Shown here: positions 139-54,209 of the stretch, piece by piece | Position numbering within the stretch: the first letter of the stretch is position 1 | Layout of the letters: each line of letters begins with the position of its first letter | DNA from: an uncultured Verrucomicrobiota bacterium | GTDB taxonomy: Bacteria; Verrucomicrobiota; Verrucomicrobiia; Limisphaerales; PALSA-1396 | Assembly: GCA_964651015.1 (NCBI GenBank) | Contig: CAZYYS010000001.1 | Span: forward strand, 1-54,724 | DNA length: 54,724 bases | Direction: 5' to 3' | Notes under the pieces: model-generated | What the model was told of the DNA's origin: nothing | Database searches by the model: none | What the model saw: the letters and a program-made list of their open reading frames with translations, nothing else | Translations under genes and position numbers: made by a program

Positions 139-210
139 GTAGCCGCCGAGGTAACGAGGCGGACCTTTCTGGCGCATAACCCTTTCCGCCTCCTGACGTC
201 GGCGGCTACG
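139..210. repeat. Palindromic element, copy A (24-nt arms, 24-nt loop)
   Basis: Left arm is gtagccgccgaggtaacgaggcgg (139-162). Right arm is ccgcctcctgacgtcggcggctac (187-210). The arms are complementary at 21/24 positions. The termini match the copies at 18125 and 53358. Confidence 0.65.
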
Positions 211-16678: not shown

Positions 16679-16790
16679 TTCGTCCTCTTCTTCACTGAGG
16701 ACTTCCCCTTGTCCGTCAGGCGTATTGTCGCGCCCATAGGTTTTGTTTCGTCGTCGTTCGCAGTGCCCGTGTAGTGACCGTTTGGAAATT

Positions 16791-18113
16791 ATGAAGCAAT
16801 CATGTCCATTGAAATGGTGTCGCCAATTCGCTATGGCGTTGCTGGTGGTGAGTCTCGTCGCATCCCTTGCGCGGGCACAGGAATCCGCTCCGACCCAAAG
16901 CTCCACCAATCTCTCCTTCACGCTGGACGCCCTCGTTTCCGAGACGCTGGAGCGGAATCCCGAACTCAAATTTTATCAGGCAGAGATCGCCGCGGCGAGG
17001 GGCGGACGCAAAACCGCCGGCTCGCTCGCCAATCCCGAGTTGAGCGGTGGGGTCGGTCAGAAGCGCGTCTCCGGTGGCGGACCTTCCGCCGAAGGGATCG
17101 CGTGGTCGGCCACCGTCATGCAACCGTTCGAGTGGCCGGGGCGCCCCGGCCTGCGCAAGGCAATTGCCAACCGTGATATTGAACTGGCCGAACTTGGTTA
17201 CGGACGATTCAAAGTCGCGCTGGCCGGGCGCGTGCGGACTTTGGCCTACGGCTTGTTCGCCGCGCAGGAGAAGGCGGCTGCAGCAGGCGAAGTGGCCGAA
17301 CGATTCAAGGCCTTGCGCGAAGTGCTGGTGCAGCGCGACCCGGCGGGCCTGACGCCGCTGCTCGAAACGCGTGTCGTTGAGGCAACCGAGTTGAACGCGC
17401 AGCGCAAGGCGAGTGAAGCCCTCCTCGCCAGTCAGTCGGCCCTGCTCGAATTGAACCAACTTCGCGGCGCGGCGCCCGACGCAGGACTTTCGGTGAGGCA
17501 AACACATCTGGCGTTCCGGCCAGCGGAAAGCAAAAACACCTTGATTGCGCTGGCGAGGACGAACAATTTTGAGGTGCGCGTGCGCGCGCTTGAACTGGCC
17601 CAGCAGGGCTTTCGCGTTGACCTCGCCAAGAACGAGCGTTATCCAACCATCTCGGTCGGTCCGTCCATTTCCGAAGAACGCGCCGGCGACCGTGAACGCA
17701 TAATCGGCGTTGGAGTGTCGTTGCCATTGCCCCTATGGAATCGCAACACCGGAAACATCGAGGCGGCCAAAGCCCGTAGGATACAGGCCGAGACCTCGTT
17801 CTACGTGACACAACGCGAAATGGAGCGCCGCGTCATCGAGGCCGCGTTGACTTACGAAACAAAGCTGCGCGAGATGGCCAAGTGGCGACCAGATTCGGTG
17901 GAGCATTTCCGCGAAGCCGCCGAAGTCGCCGACCGCCATTACCGACTCGGAGCAGTTCCCATCTCCACCTACGTCGAATTGCAAAAGCAGTATCTCGAAG
18001 CCGTCGAAGGATTGCTCGACACGAAGAAGGAGGCGCTCGAAGCAGCGGCACAATTGGAACTGCTCACGGGTCTGACGCCGCCGCTCACCGGCACCAAGGA
18101 AGAACGGAAATGA
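16791..18113 (+). CDS. Outer-membrane efflux protein (TolC/CzcC family)
   Basis: It has a signal peptide. Two OEP-type repeats are present, with NPEL..Y...I....G and typical helical heptads. It is in an operon context with an RND pump. Confidence 0.85.
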   Translation: MKQSCPLKWCRQFAMALLVVSLVASLARAQESAPTQSSTNLSFTLDALVSETLERNPELKFYQAEIAAARGGRKTAGSLANPELSGGVGQKRVSGGGPSAEGIAWSATVMQPFEWPGRPGLRKAIANRDIELAELGYGRFKVALAGRVRTLAYGLFAAQEKAAAAGEVAERFKALREVLVQRDPAGLTPLLETRVVEATELNAQRKASEALLASQSALLELNQLRGAAPDAGLSVRQTHLAFRPAESKNTLIALARTNNFEVRVRALELAQQGFRVDLAKNERYPTISVGPSISEERAGDRERIIGVGVSLPLPLWNRNTGNIEAAKARRIQAETSFYVTQREMERRVIEAALTYETKLREMAKWRPDSVEHFREAAEVADRHYRLGAVPISTYVELQKQYLEAVEGLLDTKKEALEAAAQLELLTGLTPPLTGTKEERK

Positions 18114-18124
18114 AATTGCGTTTC

Positions 18125-18209
18125 GTAGCAACCGACGTAAGGAGGCTCATAATTCCATTGATGCCGCGGACGAGCAAAGCCGTCAGGGCCTCCTCAAGTC
18201 GGCTGCCAC
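18125..18209. repeat. Palindromic element, copy B (22-23-nt arms, 40-nt loop)
   Basis: Left arm is gtagcaaccgacgtaaggaggc (18125-18146). Right arm is ggcctcctcaagtcggctgccac (18187-18209). Complementarity is 18/22. It shares the 15-mer ccgacgtaaggaggc with copy C. Confidence 0.6.
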
Positions 18210-18307: not shown

Positions 18308-18898
18308 ATGAATTCATCTACCATGAACCCATCCAAGGACAAATCCGTGCAATCAAAAAGAACCCTCGCTAGTTTCATCTTCCTGAGCCGCTGGCTGCAG
18401 GCGCCGCTCTACTTCGGGTTGATCGCCGCACAGTCGGTTTACGTGTATCGTTTCTTGCTGGAACTCTGGCATCTCATCGGGTTCGCCTTGCTGGGTCATG
18501 TGCAGCCCGCCTCCGTGCCAAAGGCGGTCACTGACACCGAAACCATCGTAATGCTCAGCGTGCTGGGTTTGATTGACGTCGTCATGATCGCGAACCTGCT
18601 CATCATGGTGATCGTCGGCGGTTACGAAACCTTCGTATCGCGCCTGAACCTGAAGGAACACCCGGATCAGCCGGAATGGTTGTCACACGTCAACGCGGGC
18701 ATCCTCAAAGTCAAACTCGCCACCGCGCTCATCGGCATCTCTTCGATCCACCTGCTCAAAACGTTTATCCTGGCCGGCACTTCTGAAACCAAGATGGTCA
18801 TGTGGCAGGTCATCATTCACGCCACTTTCGTCCTGTCCGCCATTGCCCTGGCTTGGATTGATCGCCTCACCTTCAGAGCCGTCGGTTCGGATCACTAA
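18308..18898 (+). CDS. yqhA: UPF0114 / YqhA-family inner-membrane protein
   Basis: The family signatures SRWLQAPLYFGL, GGYETFVSRL and ISSIHLLKTF all align with E. coli YqhA. Confidence 0.85.
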   Translation: MNSSTMNPSKDKSVQSKRTLASFIFLSRWLQAPLYFGLIAAQSVYVYRFLLELWHLIGFALLGHVQPASVPKAVTDTETIVMLSVLGLIDVVMIANLLIMVIVGGYETFVSRLNLKEHPDQPEWLSHVNAGILKVKLATALIGISSIHLLKTFILAGTSETKMVMWQVIIHATFVLSAIALAWIDRLTFRAVGSDH

Positions 18899-50225: not shown

Positions 50226-50417
50226 GGTCCGAATACTTACCTGACTCGCGCCAAAATGCACGCTTTTTTTCGATGCGTAACGCGCGAGGTATCGAGGCGG
50301 TTCTAGGCAGGTCTGTTTCGGTGCCAATAGTGAGGACTAACCCAAGACTGCCCCCTTTACGTGAGAATTGCGAATAGTCCGATGCAAAACGGCGCGGTGA
50401 ATTGGATCTGGTGAATG

Positions 50418-51968
50418 CTATTCGACATGCGGTTTGAACTCACGCGCCAGTTTGAGGGCTTCTTCAATTTCGTCAGTGGTCATCCCGGCACGGAGCAGGA
50501 CCAAATGTCGCTTCGCGGTCGGAATTTTTTCCGTGGGCAGGTCTTGTTTCACAGCCAAGCTAAGCCACTTGTAAGCTTGGACATAATCCTTTGCCACCCC
50601 CATGCCATCGACGTAGCAAAGGCCAAGATTATATTGAGACTTAGGGTTATTCTGCTCGGCAGCTTTCCGATACCACTTCACTGCCTCCACGTTATCTTCG
50701 GTAACGCCTTTGCCATACTCGTAGCATACGCCTAGATTATGTTGAGCCTCTGAGTGATTCTGCTCGGCGGCCTTGCGCCACCACTTCACAGCTTCCACCT
50801 CGTCCTTTTCCACACCTAGGCCGGCAGAATAGCAGTTACCCAAAGCGCGCTGCCCCTCTGCATCATTCTGCTCCGCTGCTTTGCGAAACCATTTCACCGC
50901 CTCTACGTTATCTGCGGTTACGCCTACGGCATCCCGGTAGCAAACACCCAGATTATATTGAGCGTTGGCGTCATCCTGTTCGGCAGCCTTGCGTAACCAT
51001 TTCACTCCCTCCACCTCGTCCTTTGTCACACCCAGACCTCCAAGATAGCTGCCACCCAAAGCGCGCTGGGCTGAGGCATTATTCTGGTCGGCGGATTTGC
51101 GAAACCACTTTACTGCCTCAACTTCATCCTTCGCAACACCTCGACCTTGGAGGTGGACGGATCTCAAATTGTATTCAGCCTTATCATCATTCTGCGCAGC
51201 AGCCTTGCGCCACCACTTCACTGCCTCCACATCGTCCTTTTCCACACCTAGGCCAGCAGAATAGCAGTTACCCAAAGCGCGCTGAGCTTGGGCATTATTC
51301 TGGTCGGCGGATTTGCGCAACCACTTCGCCGCTTCCGCGTCATTCTCCGGCACGCCTCTTCCTTTGTAGTAAGAAATCCCCAACTCATATTGACCCTCCG
51401 CATCGTTCTGTTCCGCTGCTTTGCGAAACCACTTCACCGCTTGCTCCTTATCTTCCGGCATGTCCCTGCCGTTAAGGCAGTGTTTGCCCAAAGCAACTTG
51501 AGCTGAAGGCTCATTCAGTTCGGCGGCTTTCTGAAGCCATCTGATCGATTCCGCATGATCTTCTGGCACCCCACGGCCTTCATGGTAGCAGGCAGCAATA
51601 TTATGCATCGCAGTGGCGTCCTTTTGGTCGGCGGCTTTGCGATACCACTTCATCGCTTCCACCTCATCCTTCGGCACGCCTACGCCTTCCAAGTAACAGC
51701 TGCCTAAGTTTCGTTGGGCCCTGGCGTAATTTTGCTCAGCGGCTTTACGAATCCACTTCACTGCTTCAACGCCATCTTTTGGCACGCCTTCACCCTTATA
51801 GTAGGCGTTGCCCAAGTCGCACTGCGCTTTAGCATCTCCCTTTTCCGCTTTGGCCCTTAGTTCCGAGATTTCTTCAGCGGTTGGGGAAGCAACTGGTTTG
51901 GAATCAGTCGGGGGAGCGGAATGGCCGTTCCAGTTACAGACAGCCATTAGCGGAAGAACCGCCAACAT
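50418..51968 (-). CDS. Sel1-like repeat (SLR/TPR-family) protein, about 13 tandem repeats
   Basis: A 36-aa unit reiterates (A.KW.RKAAEQ..A.AQ..LG.CY..G.GV.KD..EA). The N-terminus is hydrophobic. The start is either ATG 51968 or GTG 52049. Confidence 0.85.
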   Translation of the reverse strand: MLAVLPLMAVCNWNGHSAPPTDSKPVASPTAEEISELRAKAEKGDAKAQCDLGNAYYKGEGVPKDGVEAVKWIRKAAEQNYARAQRNLGSCYLEGVGVPKDEVEAMKWYRKAADQKDATAMHNIAACYHEGRGVPEDHAESIRWLQKAAELNEPSAQVALGKHCLNGRDMPEDKEQAVKWFRKAAEQNDAEGQYELGISYYKGRGVPENDAEAAKWLRKSADQNNAQAQRALGNCYSAGLGVEKDDVEAVKWWRKAAAQNDDKAEYNLRSVHLQGRGVAKDEVEAVKWFRKSADQNNASAQRALGGSYLGGLGVTKDEVEGVKWLRKAAEQDDANAQYNLGVCYRDAVGVTADNVEAVKWFRKAAEQNDAEGQRALGNCYSAGLGVEKDEVEAVKWWRKAAEQNHSEAQHNLGVCYEYGKGVTEDNVEAVKWYRKAAEQNNPKSQYNLGLCYVDGMGVAKDYVQAYKWLSLAVKQDLPTEKIPTAKRHLVLLRAGMTTDEIEEALKLAREFKPHVE

Positions 51969-52331
51969 TACATTCCGGTGGAAAGTTTCCCTTGTTATTG
52001 GAAATTGGGCACGCAACAAGGAAATCCATTTCCCGAGTTTTGTGAACACAGACAGACACTACCAGCAGGCAAGCTAGCCGTCAATTCGGTAGTTTCCTAA
52101 TTTGCCGTACTGCAGTTGAGCCCCGCTTTTTTGTCTTGTCACTATTCCACACATTCGGACCGTGCATTAATCAGCAGGAAATAATTGTCCAAACCCCGAT
52201 CTTTTTCCTTAAATTAGCCATGCAATATGAATTGCTGGCATACAAAGACGACTTTTCCGATGGTGCGGAGAGAGATGGAGGCATGAAGAAATCGGTTCTG
52301 ATATTCGAGGTTGTTTCACACTGCGCTTAAC

Positions 52332-54209
52332 ATGGCTCACAATTCTTCGCCGTCAGACGAGGACGATTTCGTGCTCACCGCCAGATCCCGTTCCACCTGG
52401 GAAATCATCCGGCGTGTCGCCGTTTATCTTCGCCCTTACAAATTGATGGCGTTCGGCACGTTCGCCTGCGCCCTGCTCTCGCTGGCGTTTTCGTTTGCCT
52501 ATCCCAAGCTCACGCAATTCGTCATCGACGAGGTCATCACGAAACGGCGGAGTGAGTTGCTCACACCGGTGATGCTCGGTCTGATCGGCGCATTCCTGTT
52601 GCGCGATTTGTTCAACAGTATCCGCATTCGGATCAACAACACGTTCGAGCAAAACGTCATTTTCGACATGCGGCGGGAGGTTTACGCGCGGCTGCAACGA
52701 TTGCCGGTGAACTACTTCGACCAACGCGCTTCCGGCGATCTGATGACCCGCGTGATAGAAGACGTGAATTCCGTGGAGCGCGTGCTGATTGACGGCACGG
52801 AACAAGGCACGGTCGCCATTCTCAGCATCATTGGCGTGCTGGTCATTTTGTTTTCCACCAACGTCACTCTCGCCGCCGTGGCATTGATCCCGTTGCCGAT
52901 TCTCACCGGTGGAGCGCTTTGGTACACCCTGACGGCGCATCGGCGCTATCGTGCCCAACGCCGCGCGGCCAGCGCCATGAACGCGTTGCTCATGGACAAC
53001 TTGCAGGGTGTCCGCCAGATCAAGGCGTTTGGCCGTGAGCCGCACGAGGACGCGCGCTTTGCCGGGCGCGCTGGTGATTTGCGCGAGGGAACGCTCGGCG
53101 TGATGCGTGTCTGGGCCATGTATTCACCAGCCATGAGTTTTGCCGCGGCGCTTGGCACGGGACTCGTGTTCTGGGTCGGTGGAAGGATGGTTCTGCGCGG
53201 CTCCATGACACTCGGCGAGTTGATCGCGTTCGTGTTCTATCTCGCCTTGTTTTACGAACCGGTGGCGCGGCTGCACGGCTTGAACCAGATGATGCAGGCC
53301 GCCCGCGCCGCAGGAGAACGAGTCTTTGATATTCTGGATACCGTTGGGGAAAGAGATGTAGCCGCCGACGTAAGGAGGCGGACGGGAATAAAAGGCGATC
53401 CGACCCGCCTCCTCACGTCGGGGGCTACGGCCCAGTGGCGCGCGCGTGGCGAAGTGATTTACGAGAACGTCGGGTTTTCCTACGGCCCGGAGAAAACTGT
53501 GCTTCGGGAAATCTCCCTGCACGCGCAGCCGGGAGAAATGATCGCCCTGGTCGGACCAACGGGCGCGGGAAAATCTACGCTCGTCAACCTCCTGCCCGCT
53601 TTTTACGAAGTGACTTCGGGCCGCATCACCATCGACGGCGAAGACATCGGCGGCATCTCGCTGGAATCGCTGCGCACGCAACTCAGCGTCGTGAGCCAGG
53701 AAGCTTTTCTATTCAACGGCACGATCCGCGAGAATATTCTTTACGGAAAGCTCGACGCCACGGAGACGGAACTTCTCGCAGCGTCGCACGCGGCAAACTG
53801 CCATGAGTTCATCGACCGGCTACCCAATGGCTACGATTCCCGCGTGGGAGAGCGCGGCGTGAAGTTGAGCGTCGGCGAAAAACAACGCGTCAGCATTGCC
53901 CGCGCCCTGCTGAAAAACGCTCCCATCTTGATTCTCGACGAGGCGACGGCCAGCGTCGATACCGCCACGGAGCGTCTGATCCAGGAAGCTTTGGAACGAT
54001 TGATGGCCAACCGAACCAGCTTCGTCATTGCTCATCGCCTCAGCACGATTCGCAAGGCCGACCAGATTTTGGTGATGCATCATGGACAAATCATTGAACG
54101 CGGCAATCATGAGGAATTGTTGCGCCTCGACGGCCTCTACGCCAAACTCGCGCGTATCCAAAACACGACGTTCATCGAAGAAAGTTTCGAGAAGTTGTCG
54201 ATTGCTTGA
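52332..54209 (+). CDS. ABC exporter, fused permease/ATPase (MsbA-like type I exporter)
   Basis: A 6-TM domain is followed by an NBD. Walker A is GPTGAGKST, the signature is LSVGEKQR and Walker B is ILILDEATS. Confidence 0.92.
   Translation: MAHNSSPSDEDDFVLTARSRSTWEIIRRVAVYLRPYKLMAFGTFACALLSLAFSFAYPKLTQFVIDEVITKRRSELLTPVMLGLIGAFLLRDLFNSIRIRINNTFEQNVIFDMRREVYARLQRLPVNYFDQRASGDLMTRVIEDVNSVERVLIDGTEQGTVAILSIIGVLVILFSTNVTLAAVALIPLPILTGGALWYTLTAHRRYRAQRRAASAMNALLMDNLQGVRQIKAFGREPHEDARFAGRAGDLREGTLGVMRVWAMYSPAMSFAAALGTGLVFWVGGRMVLRGSMTLGELIAFVFYLALFYEPVARLHGLNQMMQAARAAGERVFDILDTVGERDVAADVRRRTGIKGDPTRLLTSGATAQWRARGEVIYENVGFSYGPEKTVLREISLHAQPGEMIALVGPTGAGKSTLVNLLPAFYEVTSGRITIDGEDIGGISLESLRTQLSVVSQEAFLFNGTIRENILYGKLDATETELLAASHAANCHEFIDRLPNGYDSRVGERGVKLSVGEKQRVSIARALLKNAPILILDEATASVDTATERLIQEALERLMANRTSFVIAHRLSTIRKADQILVMHHGQIIERGNHEELLRLDGLYAKLARIQNTTFIEESFEKLSIA
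53358..53428. repeat. Palindromic element, copy C, read in-frame within the ABC exporter CDS
   Basis: Left arm is gtagccgccgacgtaaggaggcgg (53358-53381). Right arm is ccgcctcctcacgtcgggggctac (53405-53428). Complementarity is 22/24 and the loop is 23 nt. Confidence 0.7.

Follow-up and report, generated by a model that had tools for sequence, protein, structure and literature searches.

A probable REPIN in the reading frame of a Verrucomicrobial ABC exporter gene

A 54.7-kb stretch of DNA from an uncultured Verrucomicrobiota bacterium (54,724 nucleotides (nt) of contig CAZYYS010000001.1, called the window here) contains a 71-nt hairpin inside the gene of an ABC exporter. This raises the question of what the hairpin is, how it came to lie in a protein-coding gene and what it means for the exporter. 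Very probably it is a REPIN, that is, a doublet of inverted repetitive extragenic palindromic (REP) units forming a non-autonomous mobile element linked to a REP-associated tyrosine transposase (RAYT), and it sits in frame in the exporter linker, most likely as a tolerated passenger.

Two arms of 24 nt, complementary at 22 of the 24 positions (92%), enclose a spacer of 23 nt (GTAGCCGCCGACGTAAGGAGGCGG + 23 nt + CCGCCTCCTCACGTCGGGGGCTAC), exactly as a preliminary description of this DNA had reported. Folded as RNA, the element reaches -49.7 kcal/mol compared to -28.9 +/- 3.3 kcal/mol for dinucleotide shuffles (z = -6.4), and none of the 200 shuffles matched its energy. Rfam, applied to the entire window at gathering thresholds, matched no family, so that the hairpin does not correspond to a curated RNA. 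For the 71 nt a tRNA-like cloverleaf was considered and rejected on inspection, because D-stem pairing and a T-loop consensus are both missing.

The arms recur elsewhere in the window. A pattern of the arm with up to three mismatches gave six matches, compared to 0.01 expected by chance, and the matches form three doublets, the two others being located at 139-209 and 18125-18209. The hairpin is thus a dispersed element and not a sequence specific to the exporter gene, as had been proposed from these same sites. The spacers of the three doublets are unrelated, and the full arms begin with GTAG, except one at 18188-18209 that begins with GTGG. Altogether, three to four REPIN or REP copies are present in the 54.7 kb.

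To a large extent the family is Verrucomicrobial. The exact 22-mer GTAGCNNCCGACGTAAGGAGGC was searched for in 185,579 genomes (one genome per species) and found at at least 120 loci, both genic and intergenic, nearly all of which are labelled Verrucomicrobiota; the labels include Opitutaceae, Lacunisphaera, Limisphaerales, Pedosphaera, Chthoniobacteraceae, Udaeobacter and Verrucomicrobiales. Several contigs per metagenome-assembled genome (MAG) bear copies of the 22-mer. These loci of relatives contain 95-106 inverted doublets, in which near-identical arms of 22 nt flank spacers of 2-87 nt that are mostly of unrelated sequence, with preferred lengths of 26-27, 29, 33, 41 and 50 nt.

The consensus arm, GTAGC(A/C)GCCGACGTAAGGAGGC, describes a REP unit of 22 nt with a GTAG tag, a stem of 6 base pairs and a GNNA loop. 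Positions 6-12 pair with positions 17-23, with a tandem G.A/A.G in the middle of the stem. In 53 distinct arms G1, G4 and C5 never vary, and conservation of T2 and A3 is at least 90%. The stem covaries: in 190 arms the pair 12-17 is C-G in 152 cases, G-C in 33 and something else in five, the G.A/A.G at pairs 10-19 and 11-18 becomes Watson-Crick in variants such as GCCGTC-GTCA-GACGGC, and position 6 changes together with position 23, the first base past the arm (A-T or C-G). A formal count over the 53 distinct arms with the structure ......((((((....)))))), which pairs 7-12 with 17-22, found double-sided changes in five of six pairs. The covariation score was 0.208 compared to 0.069 in shuffles; none of 500 shuffles attained this value, and controls with a slid structure were all far lower. 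The GTAG tag and the covarying small stem-loop with its GNNA loop identify each arm as a GTAG-type REP and the inverted pair as a REPIN, and the doublet has the expected build of two inverted REPs with a short spacer that fold together as one hairpin. Of the 95 doublets, 31 are heterodimers that combine a C12-G17 arm with a G12-C17 arm, so that the long hairpin is weakened and the small stems remain intact. This shows that the conserved object is the single REP unit, not the long hairpin.

In relatives the family has a conserved partner transposase. An open reading frame (ORF) bracketed by REP arms at locus L033 matched the NCBIfam model REP_Tyr_transpos (REP-associated tyrosine transposase) with an E-value of 1.3e-17, and it aligned with the E. 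coli TnpA-REP structure 4ER8 (E 7e-9) in the HUH motif and the Y-x-x-N-P-V region. The protein of about 190 amino acids (aa) has more than 1000 homologues, with 60-99% identity among the 120 matches listed, and many of them are named RayT by JGI. At all five RAYT loci analyzed (L033, L104, L127, L128 and L129), the gene has arms of the family on both sides, at distances of 6-260 nt from its ends, and in three RAYT loci of 20 kb REP arms occur only beside the RAYT gene. Two of the five loci come from MAGs that also contain dispersed REPINs (JACRQF01 and JACRJX01). In relatives, therefore, the RAYT gene is flanked by the same REPs that are dispersed as doublets. L127 also contains a second gene with a Y1_Tnp domain (PF01797; 50-505, 151 aa), located about 9.5 kb from the REP-flanked RAYT and without adjoining arms of the family; it probably encodes an ordinary IS200-type transposase.

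The host gene appears to be functional. The hairpin lies within an in-frame ORF on the plus strand that ends at 54209 and whose start is uncertain (TTG at 52311, ATG at 52332 or GTG at 52371). Pfam detected ABC_membrane at residues 51-318 (E 2.4e-42) and ABC_tran at residues 398-547 (E 2.8e-34). The motifs of the nucleotide-binding domain (NBD) in the translation, GPTGAGKST, LSVGEKQR, ILILDEATA and IAHRLST, are all intact 3' of the insert, and with both domains, Walker A, signature, Walker B and H-loop present the protein is an ABCB-type (type I/IV) exporter. ORF and Pfam domains together put the element in the linker that joins the membrane domain to the NBD, where the preliminary description had placed it, and the REPIN would add 24 aa to this flexible linker. 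With the nearest orthologue the dN/dS ratio amounts to 0.067 for the part upstream of the insert and to 0.070 for the part downstream, showing purifying selection on the gene to either side. In an AlphaFold model built from 74 sequences (mean pLDDT 74) the insert lies between a confident sixth transmembrane helix (TM6) and an NBD strand, and its own pLDDT is about 46-51, which is consistent with a flexible surface linker.

Comparison with orthologous exporters confirmed that the linker is unusually long. Measured as the residues between RVFDILD and the first NBD strand (GEVIYENV in the window), it comprises 36 aa here and 17-21 aa in most of 119 orthologues. In P0002 (88% identity) and P0003 (86%), the nearest orthologues, the linker has 19 aa and lacks the palindrome, and the window exporter is closest to the P0002 gene over its full length, the linker excepted. 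Four orthologues with 77-78% identity (L122-L125) carry a recognisable REPIN of the family at the identical codon position, with differing spacers and both arm subtypes. Orthologues with a similar peptide also carry the palindromic DNA, and the refuting condition named in the preliminary description, the peptide in orthologues without such DNA, did not hold. Many further orthologues have linkers of 24-58 aa without recognisable REP peptides; one long linker that was inspected as DNA (L126) aligns at the position of the REPIN and contains a decayed palindrome.

The exporter of L130 (1001-2932, P0073) contains a different palindromic element in its linker, GGGGCGGGACTCTGTCGAGCC ... GGCTCGACCGAGTCTCGCCCC, with a GTGG-tagged right arm (GTGGGGCGAGACTCGGTCGAGCC) and the translation ...GRDSVEPAGG...GSTESRPT. 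The linkers of P0020 and P0085 (...MEQWSDG...LQHSTTPV) and those of P0093 and P0120 (...VRTPRPT...VGRGVPTAP) may be remnants of still other repeat families, P0120 representing a third type of long linker. The exporter linker has been colonised repeatedly, by the family REP and by at least one other REP family.

Insertion into reading frames is not restricted to the exporter. In relatives, 28 of the 95 doublets (about 29%) lie in frames without a stop for 80 codons or more to either side, compared to 61% of random positions in the same loci, and about 71% are outside long open frames. The open-frame set includes a few spurious antisense ORFs (L001, L053, L089 and L046), so that 29% is an upper estimate. 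For all ten open-frame copies that were scanned, the host is a real protein whose Pfam domains surround or span the insert, so that together with the window copy the domain-confirmed intragenic set comprises 10 + 1 elements. The ten hosts are CarB, PheT, two MmeI-type restriction-modification enzymes, a di-haem peroxidase, a POT and an MFS transporter, a Ser/Thr kinase, a CHAT protein and a PSCyt2/PSD1 protein. The REP arm is open in two of three frames (VAADVRR and SSRRKEA), the third containing TAG and TAA, and its complement is open in all three (LLTSAAT, PPYVGGY and ASLRRRL), which makes survival in frame easy. The coordinates of the features in the window are collected in Table 1.

Table 1. 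REP-family elements and their host gene in the 54.7-kb window.
Feature	Position	Strand	Description
ABCB-type exporter gene, fused membrane domain and NBD	52332..54209	+	Based on Pfam domains and dN/dS
REPIN (inverted REP doublet)	53358..53428	.	In frame in the ABC exporter gene; plus-strand translation VAADVRRRTGIKGDPTRLLTSGAT
Left REP unit	53358..53381	+	GTAG tag, CC, stem-loop GCCGAC-GTAA-GGAGGC, GG; 0 mismatches to the family pattern; also based on family-wide stem covariation
Right REP unit	53405..53428	-	Minus-strand reading GTAGCCCCCGACGTGAGGAGGCGG; 1 mismatch to the family pattern
Second REPIN	139..209	.	Heterodimer of a AGGTAACG arm and a ACGTCAGG arm
Third REPIN	18125..18209	.	41-nt spacer; intergenic
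Degenerate single REP-like arm	50277..50298	+	GTAACGCGCGAGGTATCGAGGC; 3 mismatches; weak

How could a REPIN come to lie in the linker? By analogy with the TnpA of IS200/IS605 and with E. coli TnpA-REP, a RAYT would recognise the single-stranded REP stem-loop and the GTAG tag and would cut and rejoin the DNA, thereby copying or moving REPINs and seeding copies around the genome. Insertions that keep the frame and fall into tolerant loops would persist and be translated. The copy in the window may have survived since two of three frames through the arm are open and the net change in length kept the frame, and since the predicted site, between TM6 and the first NBD strand, would be a disordered and surface-exposed linker. 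The exporter would then stay functional with the 24-aa peptide encoded by the REPIN, which is most likely a tolerated passenger and not an adaptation. The repeated colonisation of the linker in orthologues fits such a filter for permissive sites.

Several observations weigh against this explanation. The ORF of L033 scored 64 bits with the NCBIfam model, compared to a curated cut-off of 80 bits, and a Pfam scan of the same protein gave no match, Y1_Tnp included. A tblastn search with the RAYT found no RAYT gene in the 54.7-kb window, and the link to the transposase thus rests on relatives; its absence here is expected, since the window is a small part of a genome of several megabases. A share of 29% in open frames is high for a repeat that is called extragenic and could hint at something beyond passive tolerance. 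Finally, distant orthologues have a REPIN at the identical codon followed by WRARGEV (TGGCGCGCGCG), and the linker of the sister is uninserted: the downstream junction of the window copy, 7 nt followed by TGGCGCGCGCG (read WRAR), is common to several distant orthologues and not to the sister. A simple de novo insertion in the lineage of the window is insufficient to explain this shared stretch.

This last point could be accommodated by an older linker allele, consisting of the REPIN and xxWRAR, that spread among Verrucomicrobial lineages by short-patch homologous recombination or was repeatedly lost, with arms held near the consensus by gene conversion or re-copying. Such a history, which we consider possible but doubtful, concerns the origin of the copy and is compatible with its being a REPIN. 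The window, L123, L124, L125 and the decayed L126 share the position of the element, the 7 nt and TGGCGCGCGCG(Y)GG downstream, and many orthologues have long, unrecognisable linkers that end in W-x-x-R, like decayed copies. The synonymous divergence (dS) between REPIN-bearing exporter genes is at least 1.3, yet the arms are only 0-3 nt off the consensus; a neutral insertion shared since then would have decayed, and the arms must be recent or actively held constant. On the other hand, outside the linker the window is closest to the uninserted L121 (71 of 81 nt on the 5' side and 47 of 60 on the 3' side), which would restrict an exchanged tract to about 110 nt at most. Three junction types are present among the REPIN-bearing linkers, favouring more than one insertion event: the junction of L122 differs (FVQLR) and L124 has an extra upstream codon, which argues for at least two to three separate events. 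The different REP family in the linker of L130 also shows that independent insertions at this site do occur. A neighbour-joining tree and flank identities were used on this question; the deep branches of the tree are short and unreliable, the flanks outside the linker favour the sister, and a recombined tract would be below the length at which it could be detected. The linker copy may therefore have arisen either by recurrent insertion combined with a filter for permissive sites or by short-patch exchange of a REPIN-bearing allele.

It is unlikely that the element has been co-opted in place, as an mRNA hairpin that pauses ribosomes after the membrane domain has been made and before the NBD, an mRNA stability signal or a DNA site of the gyrase or IHF type. 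The hairpin is very stable (-49.7 kcal/mol), one arm contains a perfect Shine-Dalgarno-like AAGGAGG with its complement in the other arm, and the arms are near the consensus although they lie within coding DNA; effects on mRNA stability, termination and supercoiling have been reported for REPs of other bacteria (PMC3733652). However, the element is missing from the two nearest orthologues, which experience the same purifying selection, spacer and frame vary freely between copies, and the identical element is found in unrelated genes at unrelated positions. The 31 heterodimers among 95 doublets mismatch the long hairpin and keep their own stems, which points to selection on the single REP unit. 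A function of the peptide or the mRNA hairpin is disfavoured because the nearest orthologues do without the element, and no such function is required by the data.

A conventional miniature inverted-repeat transposable element, with the terminal inverted repeats of a DDE-type insertion sequence and a deleted interior, would also have inverted termini around a variable interior, and at a few loci (L057 and L024) arms 0.6-1.3 kb apart do enclose genes. This origin is highly improbable: target-site duplications are not seen, every arm bears a GTAG tag and a covarying stem-loop of its own, the genes enclosed in L024 and L057 are by eye toxin-antitoxin-like and not transposases, and the only transposase that is consistently bracketed by the arms is the RAYT. 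Least credible of all is that the peptide is a selected linker motif of an exporter subfamily and the palindrome its by-product: VAADVRRR...LLTSAAT-like peptides do occur at the equivalent place in several orthologues, but the identical DNA is intergenic or read in other frames (SSRRKEA, PPYVGGY) in unrelated proteins, the nearest orthologues lack the peptide, the peptide of L126 is not conserved where the palindrome has decayed, and model confidence in the insert is low.

With the REPIN passenger as the preferred explanation, a broader proposal can be made, which we put forward tentatively and regard as doubtful: a single REP-RAYT system, its 22-nt REP almost invariant, may have been kept throughout the phylum, routinely writing peptides of 20-35 aa into loops and linkers, and sites such as the exporter linker may be recurrent hot spots where several REP families land or are retained. 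REPINs would then be an ongoing source of variation in protein length, including essential proteins (CarB and PheT), transporters and kinases, and the arms would be actively held at the consensus even within coding DNA.

The remaining copies in the window lie outside genes or probably do so. A gene for a secreted protein of the cytochrome-c/cupredoxin type probably has its true start at GTG 271, about 60 nt past the REPIN at 139-209, which would leave the element outside the coding part. The ORF finder proposed a start at 103 for this secreted protein of 696 aa, which would enclose the REPIN; GTG 271, with GGAGAAGG before it and a stretch resembling a signal peptide after it, is the likelier start, and the REPIN then lies in the 5' leader. 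Gene callers may over-extend genes through REPINs, the element being open in most frames. The third REPIN begins 12 nt past the stop codon of a TolC-like ORF (16743..18113) and ends about 100 nt before the next ORF (18308..18898). The lone arm at 50277-50298, downstream of a gene for a 543-aa Sel1-repeat protein (50418..52049, minus strand), may be a decayed singleton.

Some features of the family were noted alongside. All arms of the family include AAGGAGG, a perfect match to a Shine-Dalgarno-like motif, and its complement CCTCCT(T) is present in the arm opposite; within the exporter gene these are found at 53372-53378 and 53408-53413, base-paired together in the hairpin. The motif may be relevant to translation, or it may be a coincidence of the stem sequence. 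Four REPINs of one MAG, DATLUX01 (L014 1095-1201, L041 129-234, L059 2818-2923 and L112 5977-6083), have nearly identical spacers of 62-63 nt and the unusual arm end GAGGT; they look like products of a recent multiplication that copied the entire doublet. REPINs with spacers of 43-64 nt contain three to five tandem copies of a 7-8-nt unit within the spacer (L015 3730-3823, L073 1002-1095, L081 7762-7855, L104 3923-4030 and 7236-7329, L117 254-347 and L056 130-216). The unit varies by locus (for example GCGGAGT, CCGAAAT, GATTGCG or GGTCAGA) and the arrangement recurs. Inverted single arms surround small ORFs at a distance of 0.6-1.3 kb at L024 1417-2795 and L057 910-1527. By eye, the enclosed product looks like a PIN-type toxin at L024 and like a Phd/YefM-type antitoxin at L057, and the idea that these loci are full-length parent elements was rejected because the products resemble toxin-antitoxin proteins and not a transposase. 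A few contigs with the 22-mer are labelled otherwise, namely L039, L086 and L106 (Bifidobacterium/Bifidobacteriaceae MAGs), L055 (Proteobacteria), L079 (Chitinophaga) and L053 (Victivallales, members of the neighbouring Lentisphaerota); mis-binning of Verrucomicrobial contigs could account for these, or the REP may truly extend beyond the phylum.

The name of REPs implies a place outside genes, and most work on them concerns Proteobacteria; the window adds, from another phylum, a clean and well-controlled case of a REP doublet that would be read as protein within an intact transporter gene under selection. The family has useful traits: its partner transposase is conserved, its taxonomic range is unusually broad and a high share of its copies is intragenic. 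Annotation pipelines should expect recurring VAADVRRR, LLTSAAT, PPYVGGY and SSRRKEA stretches in Verrucomicrobial proteins. For genome evolution, the persistence time of a REP-RAYT system and the constancy of its arm sequence become questions that can be asked, and for protein evolution this is one more case of mobile DNA supplying linker material. It is no new category of biology, since a survey of GTAG REPs already described the phenomenon in 2013; some modest interest comes from the constancy of REP and RAYT throughout the phylum, from the frequency of intragenic copies and from a linker that has been colonised repeatedly and by different REP families.

Among known elements, the preliminary description had compared the hairpin with the Rickettsia palindromic elements (RPEs), which, as summarised in a later survey, are palindromic repeats inserted in frame in functional protein genes at surface-exposed positions (Ogata et al., cited in PMC3733652). 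The comparison stands for the outcome, an in-frame palindromic insertion tolerated in functional genes, and probably not for kinship; the element is a GTAG REPIN tied to a RAYT, and the host lineage differs as well. To our knowledge the sequences of the two are unrelated, RPE-1 is longer, and we know of no GTAG tag or RAYT link for RPE-1. The RAYT of the family is homologous to TnpA, the Y1 HUH transposase of IS200/IS605, in the HUH and catalytic Tyr regions, and a comparable recognition of hairpins in single-stranded DNA is presumed by analogy. Unlike IS200/IS605, the RAYT is one flanked gene per locus and not a multicopy insertion sequence, and it would be the non-coding REP doublet that multiplies.

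A close match is with the REP/REPIN-RAYT systems, that is, REP and bacterial interspersed mosaic elements with TnpA-REP in E. coli and the REPINs of Pseudomonas (Bertels and Rainey, 2011, PMC3116915; Nunvar et al., 2010, PMC2817692). Shared features are the short imperfect palindrome with a GTAG tag, the pairing of inverted units across a short spacer into a long hairpin, many dispersed copies and a RAYT gene flanked by the same REPs (both seen here in relatives), and sub-families with alternative complementary stem bases that form heterodimers. The host phylum differs, those systems being described from Proteobacteria; Nunvar (2010) and Quentin (2018) contain no mention of Verrucomicrobia. 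In addition, most described REPs are specific to a species or genus, whereas the 22-mer is common to several orders and classes, and the share of about 29% of 95 copies in long open frames is unusually high. GTAG REPs were reported in the PVC superphylum by Di Nocera, De Gregorio and Rocco (2013; BMC Genomics 14:522, PMC3733652), whose survey included a single Verrucomicrobial genome and made no mention of conservation across the phylum. In this genome, that of Opitutus terrae, GTAG-17 to GTAG-20 comprise in-frame intragenic REP singles and dimers, the dimers encoding 20-30 aa, and the survey counts ABC transporters among the hosts of intragenic REPs. The assumption that in-frame colonisation would be new for this lineage was thus too strong. 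Exact 15- to 22-mers of the window family had no match in the literature searched, and the O. terrae peptides given in the survey's table of intragenic REPs (VGPALAAG, VAGVADIG, GTGVPPV) are different from those encoded here (VAADVRRR, SSRRKEA, LLTSAAT, PPYVGGY). The two have in common the phylum, the GTAG superfamily and the in-frame translated singles and dimers; the phenomenon of in-frame REPs is already known from the 2013 survey, and the REP sequence described here is a different one.

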